Assembly (NCBI GenBank): GCA_964436465.1
Contig: CAYTCV010000001.1
Location: 31,852-95,851 of the forward strand
Direction of reading: 5' to 3'
Length of the DNA: 64,000 bases
Source of the DNA: an uncultured bacterium
Lineage (GTDB): Bacteria > RBG-13-66-14
Part shown: positions 5,816 through 60,935 of the stretch, piece by piece
Layout: the number at the start of each line of letters is the position of its first letter
Numbering within the stretch: the first letter of the stretch is position 1
The notes under the pieces: generated by a model
The model's input: the letters and a program-made list of their open reading frames with translations, nothing else
The model's database searches: none
Told to the model about the DNA's origin: nothing
Position numbers and translations under genes: made by a program

Positions 5816-5823
5816 GTTTGCCT

Positions 5824-6639: not shown

Positions 6640-6648
6640 CGTCTCCCC

Positions 6649-36189: not shown

Positions 36190-36470
36190 GGTTTCCCTCT
36201 CCCCGTGGGAGCGGCTCGCCGACGGGCTACGGCGAGGGCTTCCATTGAAAAAGCGGCGGGGATGGGTATCTGCGGCCGAAGGCAAATCCCCGCCCTACAT
36301 TTCGGCATACTCCCTCCCCTCTTTGGGGGGAGGGCGGGGGAGAGGGGTGGAACGGCGGCCCGCAGAGGACTCGTCCTACGGGGCCGCCCTACGTCATCAC
36401 AACCCGGGGTGAGCGTCGGGATTGGAGGGGCGGGCGGGTGTGGACACCCGCCCCTACGTCGTAGCGAGCG
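36190..36470. repeat. REP-like palindromic element cluster (locus 3)
   Basis: ccctctccccgtgggag; gcggcggggatgggtatctgcggccgaaggcaaatccccgccctacat; ccctcccctctttggggggagggcggggg; gggccgccctacgtcatcaca; gggcgggtgtggacacccgcccctacgtcgtagcgagcg (the last unit is identical to one at 5650-5690). Confidence 0.7.
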
Positions 36471-36514: not shown

Positions 36515-36590
36515 TGGTGGACCCGAGGGGATTCGAACCCCTGACCTCCTCCACGCCAAGGAGGCGCGCTCCCAACTGCGCCACGGGCCC
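36515..36590 (-). tRNA. tRNA-Ala (anticodon GGC), CCA encoded
   Basis: Reverse complement GGGCCCGTGGCGCAGTTGGGAGCGCGCCTCCTTGGCGTGGAGGAGGTCAGGGGTTCGAATCCCCTCGGGTCCACCA folds as a cloverleaf: 7-bp acceptor stem, D-arm GCGC/GCGC, anticodon stem CCTCC/GGAGG with loop TTGGCGT, T-arm AGGGG-TTCGAAT-CCCCT. Confidence 0.9.
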
Positions 36591-37705: not shown

Positions 37706-37822
37706 CTAAACTCCTTTAACTGGCCGGTTTCTAAGGCTCTCGTCCGGTCGAGTGATGATACAACCGGGGGTGGAAAAAGTAAACCGGACCCGTTTTTCGG
37801 GTTACGCGCGCCTGGCGGCCGT

Positions 37823-37848
37823 ATAAAAACCGGGGCCTGGCCCCGGCG
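37823..37848 (-). terminator. rho-independent terminator ending the hdr operon
   Basis: On the minus strand, CCGGGGCCAGGCCCCGG hairpin followed by TTTTTAT directly after the HydG-like gene. Confidence 0.45.
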
Positions 37849-37864: not shown

Positions 37865-38695
37865 CTAAAAGTCCGGCGGGAGCTCGTCGATTTCCGCCTG
37901 GCTGAAGACCGGCCCGTCCAGGCAGACATACTTGGCCCCGACGTTGCACCGGCCGCATTTGCCGATGCCGCACTTCATCCGGTTCTCCAGGGTGGTGATG
38001 ACCCTTTCCGGCGCGAAGCCCATCTTGGACAGGCTCTGGAAGGCGAACTTTATCATGATGGGCGGGCCGCAGGTGACGACGAAGGCGTCCTTCGGGTCCA
38101 GCGCCGCCTCCTCCATCACCGGGGGCACGAAGCCGACCTTGCCCTTCCAGTCCGGGGTCTCTCCACCGGGGTCCACGGTGAGAATGAGCTTCGCGTCGTG
38201 CTTGGCCCACTCGTCGAACTCGCGCTTATAGAGGAGGTCACCGACGGAGCGGGCTCCGTAGAGGATGGTGACGTTTCCGTAATCCTTCCGGTTGTCCAGG
38301 ACGAACCATATCAGGCTGCGCAGAGGGGCGATGCCGATGCCGCCGCCCACGATGTGCAGGTTCTTCCCCTTCATGGACTCGTAGGGGAAATGGTTTCCGT
38401 AGGGGCCGCGGAAGCCGACGGGGTCTCCCGTATTCCGGCGCGAGAGGCCGCCGGTGACACGGCCCACCTCCTTGAAGGTGCACTCGATGTACCCCGTGCG
38501 CGAAGGTGAGCTGGCGATGCAGAAGGTGGACTCCCCTTCGCCGAAGGCCGAGTACTCGCCGAACTGCCCCGGCTCGAAGGTGAATTTCTCCCGGACCCCC
38601 TCGTCGGCGAACTCGAGCCGATAGGTCCGGGTGTCCGGGGTTTCCTGCACAATGTCCTTGATTTCCGCCAGCTGGGGCGCGTAGACGTTGGGCAT
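37865..38695 (-). CDS. FAD/NAD(P)-binding [2Fe-2S] oxidoreductase subunit (sulfhydrogenase gamma / AsrB / HydG-like)
   Basis: Ferredoxin-NADP reductase-like fold (RTYRL, HIVGGGIGIAPL) with C-terminal CGIGKCGRCNVG [2Fe-2S] motif; last gene of the hdr operon. Confidence 0.8.
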   Translation of the reverse strand: MPNVYAPQLAEIKDIVQETPDTRTYRLEFADEGVREKFTFEPGQFGEYSAFGEGESTFCIASSPSRTGYIECTFKEVGRVTGGLSRRNTGDPVGFRGPYGNHFPYESMKGKNLHIVGGGIGIAPLRSLIWFVLDNRKDYGNVTILYGARSVGDLLYKREFDEWAKHDAKLILTVDPGGETPDWKGKVGFVPPVMEEAALDPKDAFVVTCGPPIMIKFAFQSLSKMGFAPERVITTLENRMKCGIGKCGRCNVGAKYVCLDGPVFSQAEIDELPPDF

Positions 38696-38724
38696 GTTCT
38701 CCGTCCTTTCGGGCGGTTGACTCG

Positions 38725-39540
38725 TCAGAGCAGGATATCCTTACGCCGATATAAGATGTGCGAAACCAGAATGCAGAGCGCGGTCAGGCCGATGAAGTAG
38801 GCCACCCGCCACCAGTCGCAGCCGAAATGCCCGACCGCGATGTTGATGTCCACGAAACGGAAGGGGCTGATGTATCCGTAAGCCCGGGTGGTTTCGGATA
38901 TTTGGGTGAAACCGTTGATGAAGTAGAACCCCAGGACCACCCCGAGGCCCACCTTGGTGGCGGACCGACCCCTCGTCGTCAGCGTGGAGATGAAGACTCC
39001 CATTGCACCGAGGGCCAGCATCAGGAGCCACGTCTGCAGGGCGACGATGAGGAAGATGCCGGCGTCGTAAGGGCCGTCCGCCATTATCGCCATGGTAATG
39101 AGACTGGCCGGGACTACTATCAGATTCAGGGCGGTGAGTAGGGTTCCCAGGGCAGCCAGCTTGGAGTTGAGCACCTCGGCCCGTGTGATGGGCTTCGTCA
39201 GGAGGAATTCGGCGGTTTTCCGGGATTCCTCGTCGGCGATGAGCCGCGAGCCCAGCAGCATCGCCACGATGCTCCCCAACAGCAGGGTGTAGAGCCCGTA
39301 GTAGGTTACGAAGAACCCGAGCACGTTGGTCATGTTGTCCAGGTTTACGCCGAAAACGGTCAACATGCTTTTAAAGAAGGGATTGTTGAAAAATGAGTCC
39401 AGTTGTTCGAAGACCTTGCTCTGAATGATGATGGGGTAGAAGAATGTTATCAGGGTATTCAGGCCGACGAGAACCGCGCTCCAGACGAGGACCTCCTTCC
39501 AATGCCGCCGCAGCTCCATGAGGTAGACGTTCGCGTTCAA
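38725..39540 (-). CDS. ABC-2 family transporter permease
   Basis: Six TM helices, ABC-2-type permease topology; start overlaps the ATPase stop. Confidence 0.7.
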   Translation of the reverse strand: MNANVYLMELRRHWKEVLVWSAVLVGLNTLITFFYPIIIQSKVFEQLDSFFNNPFFKSMLTVFGVNLDNMTNVLGFFVTYYGLYTLLLGSIVAMLLGSRLIADEESRKTAEFLLTKPITRAEVLNSKLAALGTLLTALNLIVVPASLITMAIMADGPYDAGIFLIVALQTWLLMLALGAMGVFISTLTTRGRSATKVGLGVVLGFYFINGFTQISETTRAYGYISPFRFVDINIAVGHFGCDWWRVAYFIGLTALCILVSHILYRRKDILL

Positions 39541-40445
39541 TCTTCCCCGCCGTCCCGGTAGTAGTGAAGGAAAATTTCTTCCAGGTCCGGCTCCTCGAGG
39601 GTCAGGTCGGTGACCGGCATCCCCGCCAGGAGCGCGAGCAGGTCCCCGATGCGCCCGTCGAAGAGGAAGCGGCAGTCGCGGTCCCGGATTTCGAGCTCGT
39701 GCACACCAGCGACGTCGAGCGCGCCGGGCGCTGGAGTTTCACTCAGGCTCAGGCGGACCTTCCTGAGCTGCTTCTGGCGCAGGGAGCTAATCTCCTCGAC
39801 GTCGACGACGTGTCCCTCCTTGAGAATCGCCACCCGCCCGCAGATTTTCTGGACCTCGGACAGGACGTGGGAGGAGTAGAAGACCGTCGCCCCCCGGGCG
39901 TTCTCCTCGCGCAGCGTCTCGGTGAGGCGGGCCTGGATGAGGGGGTCGAGGCCGCCCGTCGGCTCGTCCAGAATCAGAAGCTCCGGCGAGTGGAGGAGCG
40001 CCGCCAGGATGCCGACCTTTTTCTTGGTGCCCAGGGAGAGGTCGGCGAAGTTTCGGGCCAGGTCCACCTTGAAGCGCTCGGCCAGCACCCGCGTCCGCTT
40101 CCCGTCCACCGCCCCGTAGAAGCGGGCCGAGTAGGCCAGAAGCTCGCCCACCCGCAGGCGGTCGTAGCAGTTCACCTCCGCGGGCAGATACCCGACGCGC
40201 CGCTTTATCGCCTTCGAATCCCGGACGATGTCCAGGCCGAAAATCCTCCCCGCGCCGCGCGTCGGGTACAGAAGGGACAAAAGGGTGCGGATGGTGGTGG
40301 ACTTGCCGGCGCCGTTGGGCCCGATGAAGCCGAAGATTTCCCCCGGCTCCACCTCCAGGTCCACGTCCTGGATACCCCGCGTTTTGCCGTAAAACTTGGT
40401 CAGGCCGCGGGTTTCAATCGCCGGGTGGTGAGCGGTGTCCGTCAC
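39537..40445 (-). CDS. ABC transporter ATP-binding protein (ABC-2 subfamily)
   Basis: Walker A GPNGAGKST, signature LSLGTKKKV, Walker B LLILDEPTGGLD, H-loop; C-terminal extension. Confidence 0.9.
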   Translation of the reverse strand: MTDTAHHPAIETRGLTKFYGKTRGIQDVDLEVEPGEIFGFIGPNGAGKSTTIRTLLSLLYPTRGAGRIFGLDIVRDSKAIKRRVGYLPAEVNCYDRLRVGELLAYSARFYGAVDGKRTRVLAERFKVDLARNFADLSLGTKKKVGILAALLHSPELLILDEPTGGLDPLIQARLTETLREENARGATVFYSSHVLSEVQKICGRVAILKEGHVVDVEEISSLRQKQLRKVRLSLSETPAPGALDVAGVHELEIRDRDCRFLFDGRIGDLLALLAGMPVTDLTLEEPDLEEIFLHYYRDGGED

Positions 40446-40481
40446 ATGTCCCTTAATCCCGAGCGGGGTTCCATCCGTCGC

Positions 40482-41513
40482 CTATTCCCCCTGCTCGGCC
40501 ACGGCGCCCATGACCTCGGTGATGTCCTGGCCGACGGGGCAGACGCGGATGCAGCGCCCGCAGCCGACGCAGCCGGGCAGGTTCCACTTGTCCAGGAAAA
40601 TCTTGAACTTGCAGGTGAAGCGGTTGCGCCAGCGCAGCGGCTGCCGCCCGCGCGGGTTGTGCCCCGAGGCGTGGAGGGTGAAGTGGTCGAACTGGCAGGC
40701 GTCCCAGTTCCTTTTGCGCTCGCCGGCGCCCAGCTTGCCCTCGTCCACGATGTCGAAGCAGTGGCAGGTGGGGCAGACGAAGGTGCAGGCGCCGCAGGAG
40801 AGGCAGCGGAACGCCATCTTCGGCCACTTCTCGGAATCGTAATTGTCGTAATCGTCGAGCCAGGCCTTGATGCGCTCCGGTGTTTCCGCCAGGTCGTGGC
40901 GCAGGTCCTTGTACGCCTTCTCGATGGCCTTGTCGCGCAGGGCGCGCTCGGGCGCCGGGGCGAAGACCTTTTCGTGCCTGGCCAGGAGCTCCTCGCCCTT
41001 TGTGCTGCCGGTCTCGACGTAGAAGCCGTCCTCGAGGGGGGTCAGCAGGATGTCCGCCCCCTCGACGCCGTCGGGCCGCCCGCCGGTGGAGGTGCAGAAG
41101 CAGGCGTCGTCGGCGGCGGTGCAGCTCACGGCGACGATGACGGCGGCGGCGCGCCGCTTCAGATAGAACTCGTCCTCGTACTCCCCGGCGAAGACCGCGT
41201 CCAGGCTCTGCATGCCGCGGGCGTCGCAGGGCCGGCAGAAAATCACCGTGGGCGGGTACACGTCGAGGAGGAGGTCGCGGACCCGCGTCTCGGCCGCGTC
41301 GTAGTCGTAGGCGAGAATCGGCTCCGTCCGGGCGAAGATGAAGTCCTTGGCGGAGTTGGCGGTGCAGACGTAGTCCGCCTCGTACTCCTCCATCGAGGAG
41401 AGCTCGGCGAGGACGACGTCGTCGCCGCGCCTGGTCGGCCCGACGATGCGGTAGTTGTCGCCCGTGAGCGCCTGGAAGAGGTCGCTAAAATCCCGCAGCT
41501 TGCCCTCGCGCAT
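40482..41513 (-). CDS. 4Fe-4S cluster oxidoreductase subunit (sulfhydrogenase beta / AsrA / HydB-like)
   Basis: Cys motifs CRPCDARGM, CFCTSTGG, CLSCGACTFVCPTCHC, CVGCGRCIRVCPVG characteristic of AsrA/ShyB-type FeS subunits. Confidence 0.75.
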   Translation of the reverse strand: MREGKLRDFSDLFQALTGDNYRIVGPTRRGDDVVLAELSSMEEYEADYVCTANSAKDFIFARTEPILAYDYDAAETRVRDLLLDVYPPTVIFCRPCDARGMQSLDAVFAGEYEDEFYLKRRAAAVIVAVSCTAADDACFCTSTGGRPDGVEGADILLTPLEDGFYVETGSTKGEELLARHEKVFAPAPERALRDKAIEKAYKDLRHDLAETPERIKAWLDDYDNYDSEKWPKMAFRCLSCGACTFVCPTCHCFDIVDEGKLGAGERKRNWDACQFDHFTLHASGHNPRGRQPLRWRNRFTCKFKIFLDKWNLPGCVGCGRCIRVCPVGQDITEVMGAVAEQGE

Positions 41514-41546
41514 GGCATCCCTCTGGTTGAAACGGCTGGCCGTTTT

Positions 41547-42422
41547 TTAACGGATGAACTCCTCCGCATCCTTCTCGGTGTAGGTGGTCAGCGGCGGCCG
41601 GGATTCGGGGTCCAGACCGGCCACGTAGCCGAAGCGCTCGCTGACGATTTTGCGCAGGTGCTGGTTCAGTAAATCCAGCGGTATTCCCACGGGACAGGCC
41701 CGCTGGCACTCGCCGCAGCCGATGCAGCGCCCGGCCAGGTGAAACGCCCGCACGATGTTCCAGCTCCAGCTTCCCAGCTCGTGCCCCGAGGTGGGGACCC
41801 ACTGCGGCTGGTTCGAGTCGGCGATGCACCGCTCGCAGGAGCACAGGGGGCACGCCGCGCGGCAGGCGTGGCACCGGATGCATTTGGCCAGTTCCTCGCG
41901 CCAGAAGGCGTAGCGCTCCTCCCGGGATTTTTTCGCCAGTTCCGCGGCCAATTCGCTCGGCGCGTACTCCGTGCGCGGCGCCTCTTCGGGCAGGTCGCCG
42001 ATGACGTGGGCCGTGTGCCGCGGCCGGTGGACGTCGCAGATTTCACACTTGAACGGGCGCTCGCCGTCGGCGGCGTCGAAGTTCGGGACCACGCCGGAGC
42101 AGCAGACGCCGATGAGGGTGACCTTCTCCGGGTCGAGCTGGGCCTCCTGGATGAGCCCCACGGCGGCCTTGGCGTCGCAGCCCTTCAGCACGACCGCCGG
42201 CTTGGAGAACTCCGCCCCCAGAAGCTTGTAGCGCTTGTTCAGATACCCGGCAAGGTTGTTCAGGCAGCGCTCGTCGAAAACGAGCCGCTCCACGTCCGCG
42301 GGGTCGGTGATGAAGACCGGCGCCCGTCGCCTTTCGTCGTGGTGCTTGCCGTAGCCGATGACGACGTCGGCCTCGCCGGATTCGAGGAGCTTTTTCGCCA
42401 GCTCGCGCAGTTGGGTTTCCAT
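41547..42422 (-). CDS. Hdr-associated 4Fe-4S dicluster protein (FrhB/FlxC-like)
   Basis: Start set to METQLRELAKK (the track ORF has a low-complexity 5' extension overlapping mvhD); CIRCHACRAACPLCSCERC and CIGCGECQRACPVG ferredoxin-type motifs; 4 nt after the mvhD stop. Confidence 0.65.
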   Translation of the reverse strand: METQLRELAKKLLESGEADVVIGYGKHHDERRRAPVFITDPADVERLVFDERCLNNLAGYLNKRYKLLGAEFSKPAVVLKGCDAKAAVGLIQEAQLDPEKVTLIGVCCSGVVPNFDAADGERPFKCEICDVHRPRHTAHVIGDLPEEAPRTEYAPSELAAELAKKSREERYAFWREELAKCIRCHACRAACPLCSCERCIADSNQPQWVPTSGHELGSWSWNIVRAFHLAGRCIGCGECQRACPVGIPLDLLNQHLRKIVSERFGYVAGLDPESRPPLTTYTEKDAEEFIR

Positions 42423-42426
42423 GTCC

Positions 42427-42948
42427 CTACCTGGAGAGATTGTGGTAGTCGGTGTGCGGCCCCAGCTCCCGCACCTTGTCCGTGACCTCGTTGATGACCT
42501 TGACCCACTTGACGCCCTCGGCCGCCGAGACCCAGGAGAACTGGAGCCGGTCAAGGTCCAGGCCGAGGAAGCTGAAGAGCTCGCGGAAGACGGTCCAGCG
42601 CCGCCGGGCGTGGTAGTTTCCCGTGTTGTAGTGGCAGTCGCCGGGGTGGCAGCCGGAGACCAGCACGCCGTCGGCCCCGTTCTCGAAGGCCTTGAGCACG
42701 AACAGCGGGTCTATGCGCGCCGTGCAGGGCAGCTTGATGACGCGCACGTTCGCCTGGTACTTCATGCGGCTGGTGCCCGCCAGGTCCATGCCCAGGTAGG
42801 TGCACCAGTTGCAGACGAAGGCGACTATTCGCGGCTCCCACTCCCCGCCGGAGGGCTCCGGTTTTTCCGTCTTTTCCAGGGGGACGGCCGTATCCTCGAC
42901 GACCAGCTCGTCGGCGGCCTTGGTGGTCAGGGCTTCTTTCTCGGCCAC
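42427..42948 (-). CDS. mvhD: methyl-viologen-reducing hydrogenase delta subunit (MvhD)-like protein
   Basis: FVCNWCTY...CTARIDP...SGCHPGDCHY canonical MvhD cysteine pattern. Confidence 0.85.
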   Translation of the reverse strand: MAEKEALTTKAADELVVEDTAVPLEKTEKPEPSGGEWEPRIVAFVCNWCTYLGMDLAGTSRMKYQANVRVIKLPCTARIDPLFVLKAFENGADGVLVSGCHPGDCHYNTGNYHARRRWTVFRELFSFLGLDLDRLQFSWVSAAEGVKWVKVINEVTDKVRELGPHTDYHNLSR

Positions 42949-42984
42949 AAGATTCTCCTTATTCCTTCGCAGGAGGAGTCTCTT

Positions 42985-43018
42985 TCGGGCGGGGACGGCG
43001 CCCCGCCCCTACACCCGG
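42985..43018. repeat. REP-like hairpin between hdrA and mvhD (locus 6)
   Basis: gggcggggacggcgccccgcccctacaccc, same GGGCGGGG-loop-CCCCGCCC-CTAC architecture, sitting inside the operon. Confidence 0.55.
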
Positions 43019-43125
43019 ATAGTCACGTCGTTAAAACTTACAGCGACTGAATTTCGGCGCGGCTTCGCCGTTTGTCAACTCCGGCTTTGGAGACGAGGGG
43101 TTTATCCACATTTTTCCAAAAGGGC

Positions 43126-45171
43126 TCACAGAGACTGAATCTCTGCGTAGAGCTGCCGGTCGTTGAAGCCGGCCAACTGAGCCGAGTTGGAGCGGCAGAC
43201 CGCCGTGCACAGCCCGCAGCCCTGGCACAGGCCCGGGTTGACCTCGGCCACCATCCGCAGCACCGCGCCCTCGCGGTTCTTGATTTCCTTCTCGGTGATG
43301 GCCTGGTAGGGACAGGCGTTGACGCAGTCCCAGCAGCCGATGCAGGTCGTCTCGTTGATGTGGGCTACGACGGGCTCGCGCTCCAGCTCGTCGAAGGCGA
43401 AGAGGTTCTGAATTTTCGAGGCGGCGGCGGAGCCCTGGGCCACGCAGTCCGGGATGTCCATGGGCCCCTGGCAGACCCCGGCGAGGAAGATGCCGCCCGT
43501 GTTCGTCTCCACGGGCCGCAGCTTCGGGTGGGCCTCGACGTAGAACCCATGCTGGTCGTAGCTGATGGAGAGCTTGCGGGCCAGCTCCTTGGCGTCGGGC
43601 TGGGGAATCATGGCCGGGGCGACCACGACCATGTCCACGGCCACCTCGAGCTCCTCCCCGGCGATGGTGTCGGCGCCCTTGAGGACCAGCTTGTCGCCGT
43701 CGCGGTAAATTCGGGATACGCGGCCGCGCAGGTAGAGCGCCCCGTCCTCCTCGATGGCCCGGCGGACGAACTCCTCGTAGCGCTTGCCGCCCGCGCGCAC
43801 ATCCATGTAGAACACCACCGGTTGCCCGTCGTGCACGGCGTGCTTGTAGAGCATGGTGTGCTTGGCGGTGTACATGCAGCAGATTTTACTGCAGAACTCG
43901 ATGCCCTTCTCCGGGCAGCGGGAGCCGATGCACTGCAGGAAGGCGATTGTTTGGGGGACCTTGTTGTCCGAGGGGCGCTTGAGCTGGCCCAGGGTGGGCC
44001 CCGACGAGGTCACGATGCGCTCGAACTGGAGCCCGTCGATGATGTCGGGGTCCTCGCCGTAGCCGTACTCGCCGTAGCCCGTGTACAGGCTCCCCTCCGG
44101 CTGGCGCCCCAACTCGTAGAGGGTGTAGCCGGTGGCCACGACGACGGCGCCGATGTCGAACTCCAGCAGCTCATCCTGCTGCTCGTAGTCGATGGCCCCG
44201 GTGGGGCAGACCTTTTCGCAGACCTTGCACTTGCCGGTCTGGAAGTAGGTGCAGTAATCGGGGTGGAGGACCGGGGTGTTGGGCACGGCCTGGGGGAAGG
44301 GGGAGTTGATGGCCTTGGTCATGGCGCCCTTCCGGACGTCGGAGGCCTCTTTGTAGCTGCCCTCGAACACCCCGAGGCCGGCCTCGAAGTAGTTGGGCAT
44401 CCGGGAGGGGCACTTCTCCTGGCACAGGCCGCAGCCGGTGCAGAGCTCGGCGTTGACGTAGCGGGCCCGGCGGCGGATGGTGGCCTTGAAGTTGCCGATG
44501 AAGCCCTCCAGCTTCTCCAGCTCGGCCCAGGAGATGATGGTGACCTTGGGGTGCTTGGCCGCCTCGACCATCCGCGGGGTGAGGATGCACTGGGAGCAGT
44601 CCAGGGTGGGGAAGGTTTCGTCGAGCTGGGACATGTGGCCGCCGATGGAGGGATTCCGCTCCAGGAGAATCACCTCGTGGCCGCCGTTGGCGATGTCCAG
44701 GGTGGCCTGGATGCCGGCGATTCCCCCGCCGATGACCAGCGCCCGCTTGGTCATCGGGACCCGGATGCGCTCCAGCGGCTCGTCGAAGAACGTCTTCTCC
44801 ACCATCATCTTCGTCAGCTCGACGGCCTTGGGGGTGCCCGTCTCCTTGGACGGGTGGACCCAGGAGCAGTGCTCGCGGATGTTTGCCACCTCGAGCATGA
44901 AGGGATTCAGGCCGCTGGACTGGGCGGTGGAGCGGAAGGTCTTCTCGTGCATGTGCGGGCTGCAGGCGGCAACCACCACGCCGTCCAGGTGATGCTCCTT
45001 GATGGCCTGGGCAATCATGTCCTGCCCCGGAGCCGAGCAGACGAACTTGTAGTCCGCCGCGTAGACCACCCCGGGGATTTTCTTGATTTCCTCGGCCACC
45101 CGGGGGCAGTCCACGGTGTCGCCGATGTTCTTGCCACAGTGGCAGACGAAAACGCCTATTCTGCGGGCCAT
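43126..45171 (-). CDS. hdrA: heterodisulfide reductase subunit A (HdrA), FAD + multiple 4Fe-4S
   Basis: 681 aa; N-terminal Cys cluster, FAD-binding VIGGGIAGIQA, ferredoxin motifs CTGCGLCQEKCP and CIGCWDCVNACP, CCG-adjacent thioredoxin-like inserted domain; the antisense 728-aa ORF is rejected. Confidence 0.95.
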   Translation of the reverse strand: MARRIGVFVCHCGKNIGDTVDCPRVAEEIKKIPGVVYAADYKFVCSAPGQDMIAQAIKEHHLDGVVVAACSPHMHEKTFRSTAQSSGLNPFMLEVANIREHCSWVHPSKETGTPKAVELTKMMVEKTFFDEPLERIRVPMTKRALVIGGGIAGIQATLDIANGGHEVILLERNPSIGGHMSQLDETFPTLDCSQCILTPRMVEAAKHPKVTIISWAELEKLEGFIGNFKATIRRRARYVNAELCTGCGLCQEKCPSRMPNYFEAGLGVFEGSYKEASDVRKGAMTKAINSPFPQAVPNTPVLHPDYCTYFQTGKCKVCEKVCPTGAIDYEQQDELLEFDIGAVVVATGYTLYELGRQPEGSLYTGYGEYGYGEDPDIIDGLQFERIVTSSGPTLGQLKRPSDNKVPQTIAFLQCIGSRCPEKGIEFCSKICCMYTAKHTMLYKHAVHDGQPVVFYMDVRAGGKRYEEFVRRAIEEDGALYLRGRVSRIYRDGDKLVLKGADTIAGEELEVAVDMVVVAPAMIPQPDAKELARKLSISYDQHGFYVEAHPKLRPVETNTGGIFLAGVCQGPMDIPDCVAQGSAAASKIQNLFAFDELEREPVVAHINETTCIGCWDCVNACPYQAITEKEIKNREGAVLRMVAEVNPGLCQGCGLCTAVCRSNSAQLAGFNDRQLYAEIQSL

Positions 45172-45212
45172 TTAACTTTCTCCTTCAAGCGCGTCGGGCG
45201 CAGATGGCGGGG

Positions 45213-45491
45213 TCACTCGAAGAGGTCCGGCTTCTTCCGCTCCGTCTCCTGGTGGTAGAGGCGGGCGATGATGCGGCGGCTCTGCAGGTACCGGATGATG
45301 CCGACGGCGGTGATGATGCCTCCCAGGGGGAGGAAGACCCAGCCGAGTACCTGGAATATCAGCACGTCGCCGAAGAACTTCAGCATCGTGAATCCCACCG
45401 CTCCGAAGCCCAGAGCGGTGCGGATGTAAGCCAAAAGGGTTCTTTCGGCGGCCAGGAGGTTCCTATGGGCGGCCAGTTTATCCCGAATCAA
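45213..45491 (-). CDS. DUF202 (YidH-like) small membrane protein
   Basis: ERTLLAYIRTALGFGAVGF signature of the DUF202 family; 92 aa; embedded in the hdr operon. Confidence 0.7.
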   Translation of the reverse strand: MIRDKLAAHRNLLAAERTLLAYIRTALGFGAVGFTMLKFFGDVLIFQVLGWVFLPLGGIITAVGIIRYLQSRRIIARLYHQETERKKPDLFE

Positions 45492-46264
45492 TGGACCCTC
45501 TCGCCGTATTTGCCGACCTTGAGTTGGTCGAACCGGCAGGCCCCGCCCGTCTCGCCGGTGCTCGGCTCATCGGGGGAAGCCTCCTCGGAGGATTCGGCTG
45601 TCGAGACGGCGCCTACCCTGCGGAAATCGTGGACGTACAAGCCGCGGACCAGGCCGCTCTTCGGCGACGCGCCGTCCCAGAGGGCCGAGTAAGCGGCGTC
45701 CAGGAGCGCGTCATCGGCGACTTTCTGGCCGCTCGAACGGATGAGCCAGACATCGAGCGCCAGCCCCACGTCGTCCACCTCGAGACCGATGACGGCGAAG
45801 CCGTCCACGGCATAGTCCACGCGGATGGGTGAATGGGGCCGGAGCTCCGCCAGCGGCTCGGAGTCCTCCGTTTCCGCGGACGGCTTGGTCAACGCCGGGC
45901 CCAGCGGGTCGCCGGGGTTGACGCCCAGCTCGAACCGGTAGGGAATGGTGAGCCGGCTCGATACGGGGACGCCCTCCAGGGTGGCCGGTTTCCAGTGGGT
46001 GGCCTCAGCCGCCTCGAGGGCGGCGAGGTCGATGTCCTCCCGGTTGCTCGACTGCGCGAGCCAGGCTTCGCTCACCTCGCCGAGCCCGTTGATTATAAGG
46101 CTGACGCGGCACTCCCCCTCGAATCCGGCCTCGGCGGCTTCCGGGGGGTAGGCCGGCGGCTCGATGGGCTCCAGCGGAACGGGCGCGGTGTAATTCACCG
46201 CCGCCCCGGCGGCGCCGGAGAGCAGGACTAGGATTGCGGAAATCTGTAAGACTAGACTCTTCAT
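45488..46264 (-). CDS. secreted protein with two TonB-C-terminal-like domains
   Basis: Start set at MKSLVLQISAILVLLSGAAGA (signal peptide); two segments (GECRVSLIINGLGEVSEAWL...VPVSSRLTIPYRFEL; FAVIGLEVDDVGLALDVWLIRSS) resemble TonB C-terminal domains. This is a weak call. Confidence 0.4.
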   Translation of the reverse strand: MKSLVLQISAILVLLSGAAGAAVNYTAPVPLEPIEPPAYPPEAAEAGFEGECRVSLIINGLGEVSEAWLAQSSNREDIDLAALEAAEATHWKPATLEGVPVSSRLTIPYRFELGVNPGDPLGPALTKPSAETEDSEPLAELRPHSPIRVDYAVDGFAVIGLEVDDVGLALDVWLIRSSGQKVADDALLDAAYSALWDGASPKSGLVRGLYVHDFRRVGAVSTAESSEEASPDEPSTGETGGACRFDQLKVGKYGERVH

Positions 46265-46269
46265 CGCGT

Positions 46270-47133
46270 TCAGGCAAATCTCGCCGAGACGGAACGGGTC
46301 GGGACCAGGTGCATGTTCAATCCGAGCTCCCGGGGCTTGTGCCCGTAGGCCAGGCCGATGAGCTCGGTGAGGTAGACGATGGGAATCCGCAGTTTTTTTC
46401 CGGCTATTCTTCCGGCGCCGCTCTGGCGCATGTCCAGGTTGGCGTGGCACATGGGGCAGGCCACGGCGATGCAGTCCGCCGAAACCTTTTCCGCCGCCAC
46501 GAGGATTTTGGCCGCCAGGGCCTCCACGATGTCCACCCGGCTGAAGGGGAAGGCCGCCCCGCAGCACTCGGTGCGGTGGCTCCAATCCACCGGCTCCGCG
46601 CCGACGCTCTCGAGAATCCGCTCCATCTTGCGCGGCTCCTCGGTGTCGTCCACGACGGCGTAATCCGGCGGCCGCGTGAGCAGGCAGCCGTAGTAGCAGG
46701 CGACCTTCAGGCCCTCCAGACGGCGGTGGACCTTTTTCGTAATCTCCTCATAACCGACGTCGTCGGCGAGGAAATCCACGATGTGCTTGACCTCGACCGA
46801 GCCGTCGTAGGGTTCCTCGACCGTCTCGGCGACCCGGGCCGCCAGCTTCTTGTCGTGCCTGAGCTCGTAGTTCGCGGCCGAGAGCCGGGAGTAACACGCG
46901 GCGCAGGTGGTCAGCACCGGAAGGCCGAGCGGCTTCGCCTGCGACAGATTGTACGCCCCCAGGGAAACGGACAGGAGCTTCGAGTGGTGGTGTCCGGGGG
47001 AGGCGGCGCAGCAGACCCAGTCCGGCACCTCCGTCAGCTCGACGCCCAGGTCCTTGAACACGGCGAAGGCGCTTTTCTCGAACTCGCGGCTGGTGCCGTG
47101 GTTGGAACAGCCGGGGTAGTAGGCGATTTTCAA
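46270..47133 (-). CDS. hdrB: heterodisulfide reductase subunit B (HdrB), two CCG domains
   Basis: YYPGCS, WVCCAAS, CAACY, YYGCLLTRP, ECCGA, ACPMCHANLD, typical HdrB CCG cysteine-rich motifs. Confidence 0.9.
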   Translation of the reverse strand: MKIAYYPGCSNHGTSREFEKSAFAVFKDLGVELTEVPDWVCCAASPGHHHSKLLSVSLGAYNLSQAKPLGLPVLTTCAACYSRLSAANYELRHDKKLAARVAETVEEPYDGSVEVKHIVDFLADDVGYEEITKKVHRRLEGLKVACYYGCLLTRPPDYAVVDDTEEPRKMERILESVGAEPVDWSHRTECCGAAFPFSRVDIVEALAAKILVAAEKVSADCIAVACPMCHANLDMRQSGAGRIAGKKLRIPIVYLTELIGLAYGHKPRELGLNMHLVPTRSVSARFA

Positions 47134-47148
47134 GAATCCTCCCAGGCT

Positions 47149-47727
47149 CTATTCGGTGCCTTCGGATTCGGTTCCGAGTACCCGCTTGTAGATGTCTTTG
47201 ACGGCCTGCCGGCCCTTCTTCGTCCCCCGCTGGGGGAAGAGTCTGAGCTTGCCCTTGAACAACAGGCCCGGCAGCTTGGTCATGTTGTTGAAGAAGTGTC
47301 CGCTGGTCAGGTTATACATCGCGGCGAGCTGGGCCTCGAACAGGCGGCTGTGCATCCGCACCGTGCCCAGGAATCGGCGCTCGAAGGTCAGCAGGTCGCG
47401 GTTCGGCGGCTTGATGCCCCGCATCCGGGCCACCTGGCGCAGGGCGTCCATGACGGCGGCCACGGACACGCCCTTGGGGCAGCGCGTGTAGCAGGTCTCG
47501 CAACTGGCGCAAATCCAGGGGGTGTTCACCTTTAAGAGCCTCTCGCCGAGGCCGAGCTGCAGGTAGCGCATGACGCGGTTCGGCTTGATTTCCATCTCGT
47601 AGGCGGTCGGGCAGCCGGCGGAGCAGTTGCCGCACTGGTAGCACTCCGCGGCGACCTGGCCCGAGAGCGCCTCGACCTGTCGCTCGATGTCGCCCTGCAG
47701 CCGCTCAAGCTCGAGAATCAGCTCCAT
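47149..47727 (-). CDS. hdrC: heterodisulfide reductase subunit C (HdrC)
   Basis: CYQCGNCSAGCP and CASCETCYTRCP 2x[4Fe-4S] motifs; 192 aa; first gene of the operon. Confidence 0.85.
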   Translation of the reverse strand: MELILELERLQGDIERQVEALSGQVAAECYQCGNCSAGCPTAYEMEIKPNRVMRYLQLGLGERLLKVNTPWICASCETCYTRCPKGVSVAAVMDALRQVARMRGIKPPNRDLLTFERRFLGTVRMHSRLFEAQLAAMYNLTSGHFFNNMTKLPGLLFKGKLRLFPQRGTKKGRQAVKDIYKRVLGTESEGTE

Positions 47728-47899
47728 GAAATCCCTCGTGGGGTTGAGTTCGTGAAAAATGGTGCGCAGTGGGGGAACGATACGGCTCGCCCTGGAGCAA
47801 GCCCTTTTCGCGGAGGGGATTCGGAAAATCTTTCATCCCACGGCGTAACCTAGCAGACGGGTAAGGCTTTGTCAAGGCCGGTGTATAGCGACGGACCGC

Positions 47900-48046
47900 G
47901 GCCCCTGGTCTCCCTCTCCCCGTGGGAGAGGGATTAAGGGTGAGGGCTACCTTCTGCCCCCTCGCCCCTCTGGGGAGAGGGCTGGGGTGAGGGGAGGGCC
48001 GACCTAAACGGCGCGCCGTCGGTCGGCCCCTACGTAATCGCAGCGG
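47900..48046. repeat. REP-like palindromic element cluster (locus 4)
   Basis: ctccctctccccgtgggagaggg; ttaagggtgagggctacctt (same motif as at 5497); cccctctggggagaggg; ggtcggcccctacgtaatcgcagcggc. Confidence 0.65.
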
Positions 48047-56596: not shown

Positions 56597-57064
56597 ATGG
56601 ACGGGGACCTTCTGCCCGACGGACGGCGCGAGATGAGCGTCTTGTTCACCAACCTCGAAGGCTTTAAGGGGCTGGCCGAGAAGCTGGGCGATGAAGGGGC
56701 GGCCTCGCTCCTGGCCGAATACTACGACGCCGTGGGCCGGATAGTCGAAAAGCACGGTGGGGTGGTGGACAAGCTCATGGGCGAAGGCGTCCTAGCCACG
56801 TTCAACGCCGTGGCCGAACTGGAGGACCACGGCCCGGTGGCGCGTCGGGCGGCGGAGGAGATAATCGCCGAGGTCTCCCGGCTGACGGCCGGGGGCGGTC
56901 CGCTACGGGCGGCGGTGGGCGTGGCGTCCGGTCCCGCCGATGTTCGTACCTTTTCCGCCGGCTCGTACACCGCCACCACCGTAGTCGGCGGGACGGTGAG
57001 CCGCGCCGCCCAGGCCGCGCGCGGACGACGTTACGGCTCGGTTTCCGACACCGACGCGAAGTAG
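56597..57064 (+). CDS. class III adenylate/guanylate cyclase-homology domain protein, catalytically degenerate
   Basis: MSVLFTNLEGFKGLAE...HGGVVDKLMGEGVLATFN aligns with the FTDIVGFT...GG.VDKFIGD cyclase core, but both metal-binding Asp positions are N and E; 155 aa, standalone. Confidence 0.55.
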   Translation: MDGDLLPDGRREMSVLFTNLEGFKGLAEKLGDEGAASLLAEYYDAVGRIVEKHGGVVDKLMGEGVLATFNAVAELEDHGPVARRAAEEIIAEVSRLTAGGGPLRAAVGVASGPADVRTFSAGSYTATTVVGGTVSRAAQAARGRRYGSVSDTDAK

Positions 57065-57146
57065 GCGTCCGTTTCACGATGAATCCCGCCCCGGCGGGGT
57101 TTTTTCCATATTTGACGCCCGCGGCGGCCTGGGATAAGATAGCCCC

Positions 57147-58583
57147 ATGCTCAACGGGTCCCCAGCGGTCGAGCCCTACAGCGTCAGCGCGCTGACCGCC
57201 CTCATCAAGGGCACCCTCGAGGAGCGCTACGCCGGGGTCTGGGTGGCCGGGGAGCTTTCCGACGTGAAACTGGCCGCCAGCGGCCACCTGTACTTCCGCC
57301 TGAAGGACGAGGGCGCGGTGCTGGGCTGCGCCATGTTCCGGCCGCGGCCCCAGCGCCTCGGCTTCGTCCCCGCGGACGGGCAGGAAGTCGTGGCCCGGGG
57401 CGACGTCTCCGTCTACCCGCCCCGGGGCAGCTACCAGCTCATCTGCGACGAATTGGTCCTGCGCGGGCTGGGGGAGCTTCAGCGGGCCTTCGAGGAGCTG
57501 AAGCGCAGGCTGGCCGCCGAGGGGCTTTTCGCCGCCGAGGGAAAACGGCCGCTGCCGCGCCTGCCGAAACGGGTGGGGGTGGTCACCAGCCGCGACGGTG
57601 CGGCCCTGCGCGACATCCTGCGCGTCCTGGCGCGCCGTCACGCCGGCCTGGACGTGGTTCTCCGGCATGCACAGGTCCAGGGCGAGGGCGCCGGGGCGGA
57701 GCTGGCCCGCGCCGTGGAGGAACTCGGAGCCTCGGGGCTGGTGGACGTGCTCATCGTCGGGCGGGGCGGCGGTTCCTACGAGGACCTGTTCTGCTTCAAC
57801 GACGAACGGCTGATTCGGGCGATTCGCGCCTGCCCGGTGCCGGTCATCTCCGCCGTGGGGCACGAGGTGGACGTGACGTTGGCGGACCTGGCGGCCGACG
57901 TGCGGGCCCCAACCCCCAGCGCCGCCGCCGAGATGGTCACCGCCGAGCGCGACGAGCTGCGCCGCCGCGTCGTCGCCGGGAAAAACTCCATCCGCCGCGT
58001 CGCCGCGGACCGGGTGAAGCTCGAGCGGCAGCGGCTCGAAAATATGGCCAAAACCCTCTCCGCGGAGCGGCTGGACGGTTATCTGAACCTCCGCCGCCAG
58101 CGGGTGGACGGCCTGGGCGAGCGCCTGCGGCACGCCTCACTTTCGGCTCTGGACGCGGGGAGGTCCGCCTTCGCGCGGCTTCGGCTGGCCCTCTATCGAA
58201 CCCATGCGGTCCCCCGCCTGCGCGAGAGGGCCCTATCCGGCCTCGTCCGCCGATTGAGCCTGTCCGCCTCGGGCGGAATAAACGCCCGGCGCGTGCAATT
58301 GAGCACCGGGTCCGGAAAGCTCGTCGCCCTCGACCCCCGGGCCGTCATCGGTCGGGGCTACGGTTATCTTTCGCGCAGGGGCGCGTCCGTGCGTTCCATT
58401 AAAGAACTGCATCCGTCCGACGAACTGGGCGTGACCGTCCGCGACGGGACGGCGCTCACCGTGGTCAGGAGGACTTTTGGGGAAAAAGCCGACCTTCGAG
58501 GAGGCGATGGAGAGGCTGGAGGCCATCGTCGCCGAGCTCGAGAGCGGGGGGTACCCCCTGGACAGACTGACCTCCCTCTTTGA
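57147..58583 (+). CDS. xseA: exodeoxyribonuclease VII large subunit
   Basis: N-terminal OB-fold (YSVSALTALIKGTLE, GHLYFRLKDE), catalytic core (VGVVTSRDGAALRDIL, IVGRGGGSYEDL); the 3' end overlaps xseB by 107 nt in another frame. Confidence 0.85.
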   Translation: MLNGSPAVEPYSVSALTALIKGTLEERYAGVWVAGELSDVKLAASGHLYFRLKDEGAVLGCAMFRPRPQRLGFVPADGQEVVARGDVSVYPPRGSYQLICDELVLRGLGELQRAFEELKRRLAAEGLFAAEGKRPLPRLPKRVGVVTSRDGAALRDILRVLARRHAGLDVVLRHAQVQGEGAGAELARAVEELGASGLVDVLIVGRGGGSYEDLFCFNDERLIRAIRACPVPVISAVGHEVDVTLADLAADVRAPTPSAAAEMVTAERDELRRRVVAGKNSIRRVAADRVKLERQRLENMAKTLSAERLDGYLNLRRQRVDGLGERLRHASLSALDAGRSAFARLRLALYRTHAVPRLRERALSGLVRRLSLSASGGINARRVQLSTGSGKLVALDPRAVIGRGYGYLSRRGASVRSIKELHPSDELGVTVRDGTALTVVRRTFGEKADLRGGDGEAGGHRRRARERGVPPGQTDLPL

Positions 58584-58716
58584 GGAGGGACTTGCCCTGG
58601 CGAAACTCTGCCAGTCCCAACTCGACGCCACCGAGCGCCGACTCACCGAGCTGGCCAAGGGCGACGACGGCTCCCCCGTCGAGCGCCCCCTGGACCTGCC
58701 CGACGTGGAGGGATGA
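58477..58716 (+). CDS. xseB: exodeoxyribonuclease VII small subunit
   Basis: TFEEAMERLEAIVAELESGGYPLDRL...EEGLALAKLCQSQL, the typical XseB helix-hairpin. Confidence 0.8.
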   Translation: MGKKPTFEEAMERLEAIVAELESGGYPLDRLTSLFEEGLALAKLCQSQLDATERRLTELAKGDDGSPVERPLDLPDVEG

Positions 58717-59615
58717 ACTTGGCCGTTGAGCTCAAGACCTATCTGGAACAGAAGCGGGCCTTCGTCGACGGCGAGCTGGCCAGGCTCCTGCCGAACCGAG
58801 GGGCCTACCCGCCCGACGTTCACGAGGCGCTGCACTACGCCGTCTTTTCCGGCGGCAAGCGCCTGCGGGCGATTCTGGTCCTGACAACCGCCGAGGCGAT
58901 TGCCGACGAGTTGCCCGACGGGGCCTCCGAGGCGGCCTGCGCCGTCGAGTGCGTTCACAACTACTCCCTGGTCCACGACGACCTGCCCTGCATGGACGCG
59001 GACGAGCTGCGGCGGGGTCGGCCCACGGTATGGAAAAAGTACGGGGAGGCGGTGGCCGTCCTGACCGGGGACGCACTCCTGACCGTGGCGTTCCAGATTC
59101 TGGCCCTGGGGGCCACGCGGGAGCTCGAGCTCTCCGACCGCCTGCTGCTGTGCTCTCAGGAACTGGCGGTGGCCTCGGGCACCTTCGGGATGGTCGGCGG
59201 CCAGGCGGCGGACGTGGCCAACGAGGGCACCGACGTCGATGCCTCCATGCTGAACTTCATCCACACCCTCAAGACGGGGGCGCTCATCCGCTGCGCCTGT
59301 CGGATGGGGGCGATTCTCGCCCGGGCCGACGACCCCCGGCTCGTGGCCGCCACGCGCTACGGGGAGCATCTCGGCCTGGCGTTTCAAATCGCCGACGACC
59401 TGTTGAACGTCGGCGGCGACGAGGCGAAGCTGGGCAAGTCCGTGGGCTCGGACGAAAAGCGGGGCAAGAACACCTTTCCGAAAATTCACGGGGTCGAAAA
59501 ATCGCGGGAGATGGCGAAAAAACACACCGATTACGCCGTGGAAGAGGCGAAGCGCCTGCCCCGGCCGGAGATTCTGGTGGAGCTGGCGCGGTTCGCCGTC
59601 GAGAGGGACCACTAG
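58713..59615 (+). CDS. ispA: polyprenyl synthetase (farnesyl/geranylgeranyl diphosphate synthase)
   Basis: First DDxxD motif LVHDDLPCMDADELRRG and second FQIADDLLN; xseB-ispA linkage conserved; ATGA overlap with the xseB stop. Confidence 0.9.
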   Translation: MNLAVELKTYLEQKRAFVDGELARLLPNRGAYPPDVHEALHYAVFSGGKRLRAILVLTTAEAIADELPDGASEAACAVECVHNYSLVHDDLPCMDADELRRGRPTVWKKYGEAVAVLTGDALLTVAFQILALGATRELELSDRLLLCSQELAVASGTFGMVGGQAADVANEGTDVDASMLNFIHTLKTGALIRCACRMGAILARADDPRLVAATRYGEHLGLAFQIADDLLNVGGDEAKLGKSVGSDEKRGKNTFPKIHGVEKSREMAKKHTDYAVEEAKRLPRPEILVELARFAVERDH

Positions 59616-60932
59616 TTGCCGACCGCAAGTACCAGGCCGCTGCTGCTCAAGGGCGGGACGGTGGTGGACCCCGTCCGGGGCTTCTTCGCGAAAACCGACG
59701 TGCTGTTGCGCGGCGGGCGGGTGGCCGCCGTGGAGCGGGGTCTCGCCGACCGGGCGGCGGAAGTCATTGACTGCGGCGAGCTTTTCATCGTGCCCGGCCT
59801 GGTGGACATGCACGTCCACCTGCGCGAGCCGGGTCTGGAGGACAAGGAAACCATCGCCACCGGAACGCGGGCGGCGGCGCTGGGCGGATTCACCTCCATC
59901 GCCTGCAAGGCGAACACCGGCCAGTTCGTGGACAACGAGGCGGCGGTGGAGTACGTCCGCGCCATGGCGGAGTTGCGCGGGCTGGTGAACGTCTTCCCCA
60001 TCGCGGCCCTGACGGAAGGACTGGCCGGGGCCGGAATCGCCCCGCTCCACGAGCTCCGGGAAGCGGGGGCGGTCGCCCTCTCCGACGACGGTCACCCGGT
60101 CCGCCGCTCCGGTCTCCTCCTCAACGCCCTGAAATACGCCCGGGATATCGGCTTTCTGGTCATCAGCCACGCCGAGGAGGAGGCGCTCTCCGCGGGCGGC
60201 GTGGTGTCCGCGGGCCCGTCGGCCACGGCGGCCGGGCTGGAGCCCATCCTGGCCGAGGCCGAAGAGGTGGGCACGGTCAGGGATATCCTCGTGGCGGCCC
60301 GCGTCGGGGTGCCGCTTCATGTGGACCACGTCTCCACGGCCCGCTCCGTGGAGATGGTGCGCGACGCCCGACGGCGCGGCTTCGACGTCACCGCCGAGGC
60401 GACGCCCCACCACTTCTGTCTGGACCGGACGTCCCTCCCGGACGATTTCGACCCGAAGACCAAGGTCAATCCGCCGATTCGCTCCGCCGCGGACCGCGAG
60501 GCGGTGGTCGCCGGGCTGCGGGACGGAACGCTGGAGGTCATCGCCAGCGACCACGCCCCGCACACCGTGGCGGAGAAGGACCAGCCGTACCAGACCGCCC
60601 CCTTCGGAATAGTGGGGCTCGAGACGACGCTGGGGCTGACGCTGACCTACCTGGTGGAAACCGGGCATCTTTCCTTCGGCGAGGCGGTGGAGCGGCTCTC
60701 CACCAATCCGGCGCGACGGCTGGGGCTTGCGGGAAAGGGCGAACTCGGGGTGGGCTCGGCGGCCGATATTACGGTAATCGACCGGGGCGAGCGGTGGACG
60801 GTGGACCCGGATAAATTCGCCGGCAAGGGGGTCAACACGCCCTTCGCCGGGTGGGAGCTCACCGGCCGCGCCGTGTGCACGGTGGTCGGGGGGCGGGTCG
60901 TGATGCACGACGGCGCCCTCATCGGGGATTGA
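59616..60932 (+). CDS. pyrC: dihydroorotase (multifunctional-complex type)
   Basis: TTG start right after the ispA stop; DMHVHLREPG, metal-ligand His/Asp pattern (HVDHVST, ASDHAPH) of the amidohydrolase superfamily dihydroorotases. Confidence 0.85.
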   Translation: MPTASTRPLLLKGGTVVDPVRGFFAKTDVLLRGGRVAAVERGLADRAAEVIDCGELFIVPGLVDMHVHLREPGLEDKETIATGTRAAALGGFTSIACKANTGQFVDNEAAVEYVRAMAELRGLVNVFPIAALTEGLAGAGIAPLHELREAGAVALSDDGHPVRRSGLLLNALKYARDIGFLVISHAEEEALSAGGVVSAGPSATAAGLEPILAEAEEVGTVRDILVAARVGVPLHVDHVSTARSVEMVRDARRRGFDVTAEATPHHFCLDRTSLPDDFDPKTKVNPPIRSAADREAVVAGLRDGTLEVIASDHAPHTVAEKDQPYQTAPFGIVGLETTLGLTLTYLVETGHLSFGEAVERLSTNPARRLGLAGKGELGVGSAADITVIDRGERWTVDPDKFAGKGVNTPFAGWELTGRAVCTVVGGRVVMHDGALIGD

Positions 60933-60935
60933 CGC

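Follow-up and report, generated by a model that had tools for sequence, protein, structure and literature searches.

Gene content and order of the cluster

The window, a stretch of 64,000 nucleotides (nt) of DNA from an uncultured bacterium of the GTDB lineage RBG-13-66-14 (assembly GCA_964436465.1, contig CAYTCV010000001.1, positions 31,852 to 95,851), carries on its minus strand a cluster of eleven genes in which the subunits of a heterodisulfide reductase (Hdr) system are interspersed with genes for an exporter and two envelope proteins. Judged by the predicted products and their order, the redox genes, seven in number, form the hdrCBA-flxDCBA cluster already known to encode FlxABCD-HdrABC. 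The locus as a whole is probably a standard FlxABCD-HdrABC system whose operon carries four lineage-specific hitch-hiking genes, which would not be parts of the enzyme.

All eleven genes are present in the order proposed by an earlier sequence-only reading of the window. The cluster opens with hdrC (47149-47727; 192 amino acids, aa), encoding a ferredoxin-like subunit with two [4Fe-4S] clusters, and hdrB (46270-47133; 287 aa), whose product contains two CCG domains and would be the site of disulfide reduction. Next comes the first inserted pair, comprising a gene for a secreted or membrane-anchored protein with a TonB_C domain (45488-46264; 258 aa) and a gene for a small DUF202 membrane protein (45213-45491; 92 aa). 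The redox genes resume with hdrA (43126-45171; 681 aa), for the bifurcating flavin adenine dinucleotide (FAD) subunit with Fe-S clusters, the MvhD-like flxD (42427-42948; 173 aa, GTG start), flxC (41547-42422; 291 aa), for an FrhB/FdhB-like Fe-S protein with its start placed at the ATG at 42422, and flxB (40482-41513; 343 aa), for a HydB/ShyB/AsrA-like Fe-S subunit. The second inserted pair encodes an ABC ATPase of the DrrA/GldA type (39537-40445; 302 aa) and an ABC-2 permease of the ABC2_membrane_2 family (38725-39540; 271 aa), and the cluster closes with flxA (37865-38695; 276 aa), whose product is an FAD/NAD(P)-binding subunit with a C-terminal [2Fe-2S] motif. The TonB_C gene had been thought to begin at the TTG at 46585, where the long open reading frame (ORF) starts; its true start is the ATG at 46264.

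From hdrC to flxA, successive genes are separated by 15, 5, -4, 41, 177, 4, 33, 36, -4 and 29 nt. Overlapping starts and stops had been described, together with gaps of 0-41 nt throughout. The overlaps are real, each of 4 nt (TonB_C/DUF202 and ABC ATPase/ABC-2 permease), and the inserted pairs lie 5-41 nt from the neighbouring core genes; the stated range, however, does not hold at the hdrA-flxD junction, which with 177 nt is the sole large gap in the cluster.

The redox core and its known counterparts

Searches of Pfam, NCBIfam and PDB sequences uphold all of the earlier family assignments, including HdrA, MvhD and the HydBG-type subunits. HdrC matches Fer4_17 and Fer4_8 in Pfam and the HdrC and QmoC N-terminal models of NCBIfam (2.4e-19 and 1.3e-18, respectively), and it is 78-90% identical in relatives. 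HdrB contains two copies of CCG (3.4e-22) and matches the HdrB model TIGR03288 (5e-54), with both CX31-35CCX34-38CXXC-type cysteine motifs readable in its translation. HdrA, which carries GxGxxG and Fer4 domains, matches HdrA2 of NCBIfam (5.6e-221) and aligns over its full length with PDB 5ODC_A (6.3e-194, residues 4-680). Directly downstream of hdrA, flxD encodes a protein with matches to FlpD (2.6e-52) and VhuD (7.4e-40). FlxC gives a weak match to FrhB_FdhB_N (1.8e-4) together with Fer4 families, and it matches the FdhB subunit of the Fdh-Hdr complex (7BKB_E) at 2.7e-29. FlxB is recognised by Fer4_22 (1.3e-30), ShyB (2.5e-51) and the sulfhydrogenase I beta subunit 9NEZ_B (1.3e-43), and FlxA by NAD_binding_1 (1.4e-18) and DHODB_Fe-S_bind (2.7e-10), with additional matches to HydG, ShyC and AsrB.

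The proposal that the donor module is of the NAD(P)H type is supported. A hydrogenase or formate dehydrogenase partner was likewise found to be absent, the ten neighbouring genes scanned being housekeeping or uncharacterised, and no redox domain was detected in seven larger ORFs elsewhere in the window.

According to PMC12125255, which cites Ramos et al. (2015; also listed in PMC5861303), the hdrCBA-flxDCBA cluster of Desulfovibrio vulgaris encodes an NADH dehydrogenase/heterodisulfide reductase. As summarised in PMC12125255, Ramos et al. proposed that FlxABCD-HdrABC bifurcates electrons from NADH to ferredoxin and DsrC, and found the system to be widespread among anaerobes. An HdrA-anchored scan, with the HdrA of the window as query and one genome taken per species, recovered 80 loci (54-62% identity) from Bacteroidota, Ignavibacteria, Geobacterales, Chlorobi, Planctomycetota, Thermoleophilia and other groups, and their gene order was read by tblastn with the eleven proteins of the window. 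The seven-gene order is contiguous in approximately 70 of them (67-75 junction pairs; median gaps of 34-127 nt). The window keeps the same order, hdrC-B-A-flxD-C-B-A, its contiguity broken by two insertions of two genes each. Given the contiguous order in other phyla and the published Flx-Hdr operon, the redox core is therefore a fresh member of a known system and not a novel combination. The sequence-only reading had named the subunits correctly, but the combination that it described as an Hdr/Mvh-type set joined to an NAD(P)H module is the hdrCBA-flxDCBA (FlxABCD-HdrABC) system already on record.

The closest counterparts are the FlxABCD-HdrABC systems of Desulfovibrio (Nitratidesulfovibrio) vulgaris Hildenborough and Bilophila wadsworthia, with which the seven subunit families and their order are shared (Ramos et al. 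2015, as cited in PMC12125255). In each case FlxA is of the NAD(P)-binding kind, FlxD resembles MvhD, HdrB has two CCG domains, and a hydrogenase or formate dehydrogenase partner is lacking. In contrast to those systems, the present cluster contains four non-redox genes at two junctions, shows no alcohol dehydrogenase gene next to it, and belongs to an uncultured Coatesbacteria-like lineage not known as a sulfate reducer. The MvhAGD-HdrABC and Fdh-Hdr complexes of methanogens (5ODC, 7BKB and 8RVU) resemble it in that HdrA aligns end to end, FlxD matches MvhD, and FlxC is homologous to FdhB of 7BKB. However, electrons enter those complexes from a [NiFe] hydrogenase or formate dehydrogenase, whereas the donor here is an FlxAB pair of the NAD(P)H type, and in a bacterial host CoM-S-S-CoB is not expected as the substrate.

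A route for the electrons can be proposed by homology with Hdr complexes of known structure and with the genetics of Flx-Hdr, the gene set, gene order and cofactor motifs being the features read from the window itself. FlxA, with its FAD, NAD(P)-binding site and [2Fe-2S] cluster, would take a hydride from NAD(P)H, and electrons would pass through the Fe-S proteins FlxB and FlxC to the MvhD-like FlxD and on to the bifurcating FAD of HdrA. From there, one electron would reduce ferredoxin, while the other would travel by way of HdrC to the pair of non-cubane clusters in HdrB, where it would reduce a disulfide, either of a protein or of a small molecule. Operation in the reverse direction is also possible. 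In sulfate reducers the disulfide would be that of DsrC; the search for a DsrC-type substrate candidate suggested by the sequence-only reading yielded nothing credible for the DsrC/TusE C-terminal motif, as far as a crude regular expression applied to six-frame translations of the 64-kb window can tell.

A different assignment of the FlxAB-like pair was also considered, in which it would belong to a sulfhydrogenase, a sulfide dehydrogenase or an AsrABC-type sulfite reductase and would not pass electrons from NAD(P)H to Hdr. In NCBIfam and the PDB, FlxB and FlxA do match sulfhydrogenase beta and gamma subunits and AsrA/AsrB best, and the pair has its fold and cofactor motifs in common with the beta and gamma subunits of Pyrococcus sulfhydrogenase I (9NEZ) and with AsrAB. 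Nevertheless, all of those matches fall far below the curated equivalog cut-offs, neither the large or small hydrogenase subunit nor AsrC was found in the ten neighbouring genes scanned, and in approximately 70 genomes the pair always accompanies flxDC and hdrCBA, as has been described for Flx-Hdr. This assignment is accordingly regarded as very improbable.

The four inserted genes

The closest match to the window is Candidatus Coatesbacteria RBG_13_66_14 (HdrA 96%), a metagenome-assembled genome (MAG) whose core proteins are 88-97% identical to those of the window. The flanks are also syntenic, with genes for RecA, an AIRS-domain protein, an NHL-repeat protein, a pseudouridine synthase and a 534-aa protein on one side and for a 348-aa TPR protein on the other, as in the window. 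The exact HdrA sequence of the window is not on record, and the lineage was recognised from homologues of the inserted genes. The sequence-only reading allowed that the insertion might be absent from all relatives, but the neighbourhoods of these homologues showed the eleven-gene order to be present in the lineage. The same eleven genes occur in L087/L088 and, jointly, on two contigs of the Coatesbacteria MAG (L082 and L091), where the TonB_C gene is uncalled owing to Ns. They also occur in L096, with an additional AT-rich 107-aa ORF in the hdrA-flxD gap, and in L081, with an additional nitroreductase gene between flxC and flxB. In the most divergent relative, L089/L090 (HdrA 88%, GC 58%), TonB_C and DUF202 are present and the seven redox genes are intact, whereas the ABC pair is absent. 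Taken together, all related contigs recovered (at least 10 distinct contigs) have the TonB_C/DUF202 pair between hdrB and hdrA, and at least five distinct lineage loci have the ABC pair between flxB and flxA. The extra gene of L081 (7165-7980) is of the nitroreductase family; that of L096 (approximately 5015-5340) shows an HNH-like motif by eye and has no Pfam match at 1e-5.

Outside the lineage, the picture is different. Neither TonB_C, DUF202 nor the ABC-2 permease was detected by tblastn inside the cluster in any of the 80 loci of other phyla, and the eleven-gene order with its insertions was likewise found in none of them. The conserved eleven-gene architecture is thus a lineage-specific variant, while the redox system itself is already known. 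The claim that an embedded exporter and envelope genes are highly atypical for hdr loci holds for these particular families, but not for foreign genes in general, which recur in the Flx-Hdr clusters of other lineages. At the same junctions and on the same strand, these include genes for a PD-(D/E)XK protein, an IS200 transposase, a PNPOx-like protein, 23S-rRNA-IVP four-helix proteins, and secreted S9-like and M28 peptidases. The Flx-Hdr operon evidently tolerates insertions at gene boundaries and, since foreign genes recur in it elsewhere, embedding alone does not imply functional wiring. Among the Geobacterales, a gene for a stand-alone CheY-type receiver domain (approximately 125-137 aa) is conserved between hdrB and hdrA in the hdrCBA-flxDCBA clusters of Geobacter/Trichlorobacter (L030, L039, L040 and L051), where it is a possible dedicated regulator of Flx-Hdr.

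The TonB_C protein begins with a hydrophobic signal, followed by only a short run of Pro-rich sequence (PVPLEPIEPPAYPP), the TonB_C domain (PF03544, 1.2e-16; TIGR01352, 2.9e-18; TonB C-terminal domains of the PDB at approximately 1e-6 over residues 34-112) and a second domain without a sequence match. Full-length relatives form one cluster at 50% identity in a profile search of 1.8 billion representatives, the other matches covering the TonB_C domain only, and no ExbB or ExbD gene was seen among the neighbouring genes scanned. A tandem TonB_C architecture found no support in the sequence, BLASTP between the two halves of the protein revealing no similarity, and an AlphaFold2 model built from a 10-sequence alignment was too poor for use, with a predicted local distance difference test score of 42. 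Its two invariant cysteines are C52, within FEGEC, and C243, within GxCxFDQL; the C-terminal motif FDQLxxGKYGER, directly before the overlapping DUF202 start, is strictly conserved as well. These features may reflect a periplasmic disulfide or a constraint from translational coupling.

The DUF202 protein (domain match 5.8e-16) is 62-86% identical in lineage relatives and up to 91% identical in metagenome contigs. Its nearest counterpart outside the lineage, at 47% identity, is found in Chloroherpeton thalassium (CP001100, L092:6001-6333), directly after genes for a molybdopterin oxidoreductase, a fused Fe-S/NrfD protein and a TorD-like chaperone.

The ABC pair has the organisation of ABC-2 (type V) exporters such as DrrAB, GldAF and NosFY, in which an ATPase with a DrrA-type C-terminal domain is followed by an overlapping six-helix ABC2_membrane_2 permease. 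The ATPase matches ABC_tran (1.2e-24), DrrA1-3_C, drrA (2.1e-53) and GldA (3.3e-49), and the permease matches ABC2_membrane_2 (1.5e-23). The pair differs from these exporters in its lineage-specific location inside a redox operon and in reaching no curated equivalog cut-off (drrA 181.6 bits against 312, GldA 168 against 403, GldF 41 against 288); all NCBIfam matches fall below threshold, so that none of the characterised subfamilies compared (DrrAB, GldAF, NosFY and lantibiotic immunity) can be assigned. Relatives of the permease are 98, 84 and 82% identical in JGI metagenomes and 62% identical in Coatesbacteria RBG_13_66_14, after which identity drops to approximately 40%; homologues at that level adjoin peptidases, beta-lactamases and PadR regulators, and not hdr or flx. 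PADLOC assigned the inserted proteins to no anti-phage defence system, the ATPase giving only generic ABC/AAA ATPase matches and the other three inserted proteins none.

The permease gene also has a mosaic history. Across this gene only, the nucleotide identity of the window to L082 and L087 falls from approximately 0.90 to approximately 0.68, and the window is closer there to the otherwise more distant L081. This pattern suggests two alleles exchanged by recombination. The breakpoints lie near the ATPase/permease boundary and approximately 100 nt before the permease stop.

With respect to age and function, the inserted genes have intact reading frames, their ratios of nonsynonymous to synonymous divergence (dN/dS) range from 0.16 to 0.50 (DUF202 0.22, ABC ATPase 0.27-0.30, permease 0.16 and 0.41, TonB_C 0.50; core genes 0.08-0.28), and their third-codon-position G+C content (GC3) of 0.82-0.88 is near that of neighbouring genes (0.84-0.91; core 0.885-0.956). 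The four genes are old, working and under purifying selection. It could be argued instead that they are recent accidental insertions or decaying pseudogenes without function, with their slightly lower GC3, and the higher rate at which the TonB_C protein and the permease evolve, as signs of it. Such an origin is hardly tenable and is largely refuted: the frames are unbroken in every relative, dN/dS stays under 1 in each of the four genes, the genes are conserved across members that differ by a synonymous divergence (dS) of 0.3-0.7, and their composition has ameliorated to that of the genome.

The favoured interpretation is that the four extra genes entered the operon at gene junctions in this lineage specifically and became fixed in a Coatesbacteria-like clade. 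They would be expressed by read-through from the operon promoter or promoters and retained because selection acts on envelope or export functions of their own. Several observations make it probable that they are not subunits, namely their absence in other phyla, the dispensability of the ABC pair in L089/L090, the extra unrelated insertions within the lineage, the unrelated neighbourhoods of the approximately 40%-identical permease homologues and the mosaic history of the permease. In particular, the absence of the ABC pair from one member and the presence of other extra genes in two fit passenger status better than membership in the complex. The inserted genes also evolve faster than the core, the TonB_C protein being 52-72% identical among relatives as compared with 78-97% for core proteins. 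Read-through is suggested by the 4-nt overlaps, the 5-41 nt gaps and the lack of a coding-strand terminator inside the cluster.

Several points weigh against this interpretation. The TonB_C/DUF202 pair occurs only at this position, in every lineage member sampled, and it is retained and translationally coupled down to 88% HdrA identity, which is how a functional tie to Hdr would also look. Two independent envelope-related insertions amount to a coincidence that a functional link would explain, and the case for read-through is drawn from spacing alone. On a rival view, the inserted envelope genes would fit Flx-Hdr for work at the membrane or in the periplasm: DUF202 and the TonB-like protein could tether the complex at the membrane, or the ABC-2 exporter could move a thiol/disulfide carrier or a product linked to the HdrB reaction. 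In addition to the strict co-location of TonB_C and DUF202 with hdrB and hdrA in all lineage contigs, such integration would be in line with purifying selection on all four genes, the tight spacing and translational coupling, the invariant cysteines C52 and C243 of the TonB_C protein, and the position of the distant Chloroherpeton DUF202 next to a redox complex (a molybdopterin oxidoreductase with NrfD). On the other hand, the association is seen in 0 of 80 loci of other phyla, the ABC pair can be dispensed with, and distant permease homologues are unlinked to redox genes. Moreover, the TonB_C protein is exported whereas HdrB is cytoplasmic, no redox motifs are visible in the DUF202 or ABC proteins, and one insertion in an ancestor, inherited vertically since then, accounts for the co-location. 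Since strict co-location within a single clade fits both models, a functional link is retained as a minority possibility and is considered unlikely. Its more specific form is judged less probable still: TonB_C and DUF202, possibly with the ABC-2 pair, would be true accessory parts linking a cytoplasmic bifurcating Hdr to the envelope in Coatesbacteria, and would constitute a new membrane-associated Flx-Hdr in which the complex might be localised at the membrane or the thiol/disulfide species of HdrB might be exported or imported.

The two interpretations have distinct implications. If the four genes are passengers, the locus would represent a member of Flx-Hdr from a barely characterised candidate phylum and an example of a conserved energy-metabolism operon serving as a landing site for unrelated genes, which have long been retained and depend on its promoter; it would also call for caution in guilt-by-association annotation. 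Were the genes functionally integrated, the locus would instead point to envelope-linked electron bifurcation and offer a possible handle on the disulfide substrate of bacterial Hdr outside sulfate reducers.

Control regions, repeats and flanking features

Upstream of hdrC, a putative operon promoter (47847-47875, minus strand) consists of TTGACA, a 17-nt spacer and TGC-TAGGTT, an extended -10-like element. Its -35 and -10 blocks are near-invariant in an alignment of seven lineage sequences, and the pattern TTGAC[AT]-N16-18-TAGG[GT][GT] has its only match in the 64-kb window at this site. A generic sigma-70 scan reported no promoter upstream of hdrC, the candidate scoring under its threshold; the assignment is thus inferred from conservation. 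Farther upstream (47895-47990, minus strand) lies a second type of repeat, rich in CCCTCACCC / CCTCTCCCCAGAGGGG(C/A)GAGGGG inverted motifs, which recurs upstream in L087 and L089.

The 5' leader of hdrC (47728-47846, minus strand; approximately 120 nt) contains a hairpin, GGGCTTGC-N6-GCGAGCC, and the Shine-Dalgarno sequence GAGGGA. Across the seven lineage sequences, with homologous positions in L081, L087, L089, L095, L096 and L097, it is conserved far above synonymous sites, and it could be a protein-binding or RNA regulatory element. RNAalifold found no covariation, none of 32 pairs showed a compensatory change, the fold was no better than that of shuffled sequences (z -0.4), and an Rfam scan of the whole window returned tRNA-Ala only, with no match in the hdrC leader or the hdrA-flxD gap. 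A Rex operator at the conserved TTTTCACGAA was also considered and dismissed, as the other half-site is missing on inspection by eye.

The hdrA-flxD gap of 177 nt, against which the median for other phyla at this junction is 51 nt, contains two conserved features. The first is a candidate internal promoter block (43013-43045, minus strand), which reads TTGACA-17-TAGGGG in relatives and is weaker in the window (TTTAAC). The second is a GTAG-headed hairpin resembling repetitive extragenic palindromic (REP) elements (42987-43012, minus strand; -24.5 kcal/mol, with no T-run after it), which the sequence-only reading had placed between hdrA and mvhD and which is found there at 43012-42987. It occupies the same position in 7 of 7 relatives, and its 5' arm is kept in L087, L089 and L095 although the 3' arm has decayed. 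The absence of a terminator-like site on the coding strand inside the cluster agrees with read-through, but the promoter-like block and the REP element in this gap leave a single eleven-gene transcript unproven.

It is possible, although doubtful, that the cluster forms two transcription units, hdrC-hdrB-tonB_C-DUF202-hdrA and flxD-flxC-flxB-abcA-abcP-flxA, with the second transcribed from a promoter in the gap and the REP hairpin acting as a partial barrier or as a stabiliser of the mRNA. This arrangement would be compatible with passenger genes. In its favour are the width of the gap, a conserved TTGACA-like hexamer lying 17 nt before an invariant TAGGGG in seven relatives, much as in the hdrC promoter (TTGACA-17-TAGGTT), and retention of the REP 5' arm where its partner has decayed. 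However, the -35-like hexamer of the window is weak, the sigma-70 scan reports no site in the gap, the REP hairpin is not followed by a T-run, and the GTAG head is conserved in all REP copies whatever their context.

The REP family, of the form GTAGGG(G)CGGGG..loop..CCCCGCC, has 12 clear copies in the window, every one of them within an intergenic cluster (5554-5785, 8466-8582, 36298-36457, 43012 and 63556-63764). It shares with intra-operon REP elements of the GTAG-headed, RAYT type the GTAG head, a G+C-rich palindrome, many intergenic copies and one copy between operon genes; elements of this kind play a role in differential mRNA stability. Members of the family are also present in intergenic DNA of L081, L082, L087, L089 and L091, and a related GTAG-headed hairpin with a different palindrome lies at 48033.

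At the other end of the cluster, the hairpin and T-run reported after the last gene were recovered downstream of flxA (37847-37829), as part of an intrinsic-terminator-like structure (37822-37847, minus strand) of eight pairs, seven of them G-C, followed by TTTTT. Elsewhere in the window, ORFs 2439-4886, 5818-7539, 56802-58133 and 58233-60989 have no Pfam match at 1e-5. After the operon comes the 348-aa TPR gene, and immediately downstream of that is the tRNA-Ala gene (GGC; 36515-36590, minus strand). On the plus strand, positions 61157-63157 encode a protein of 666 aa that resembles a type IV pilin or pseudopilin, having a pilin-type methylation motif at its N terminus as well as a bacterial Ig domain.

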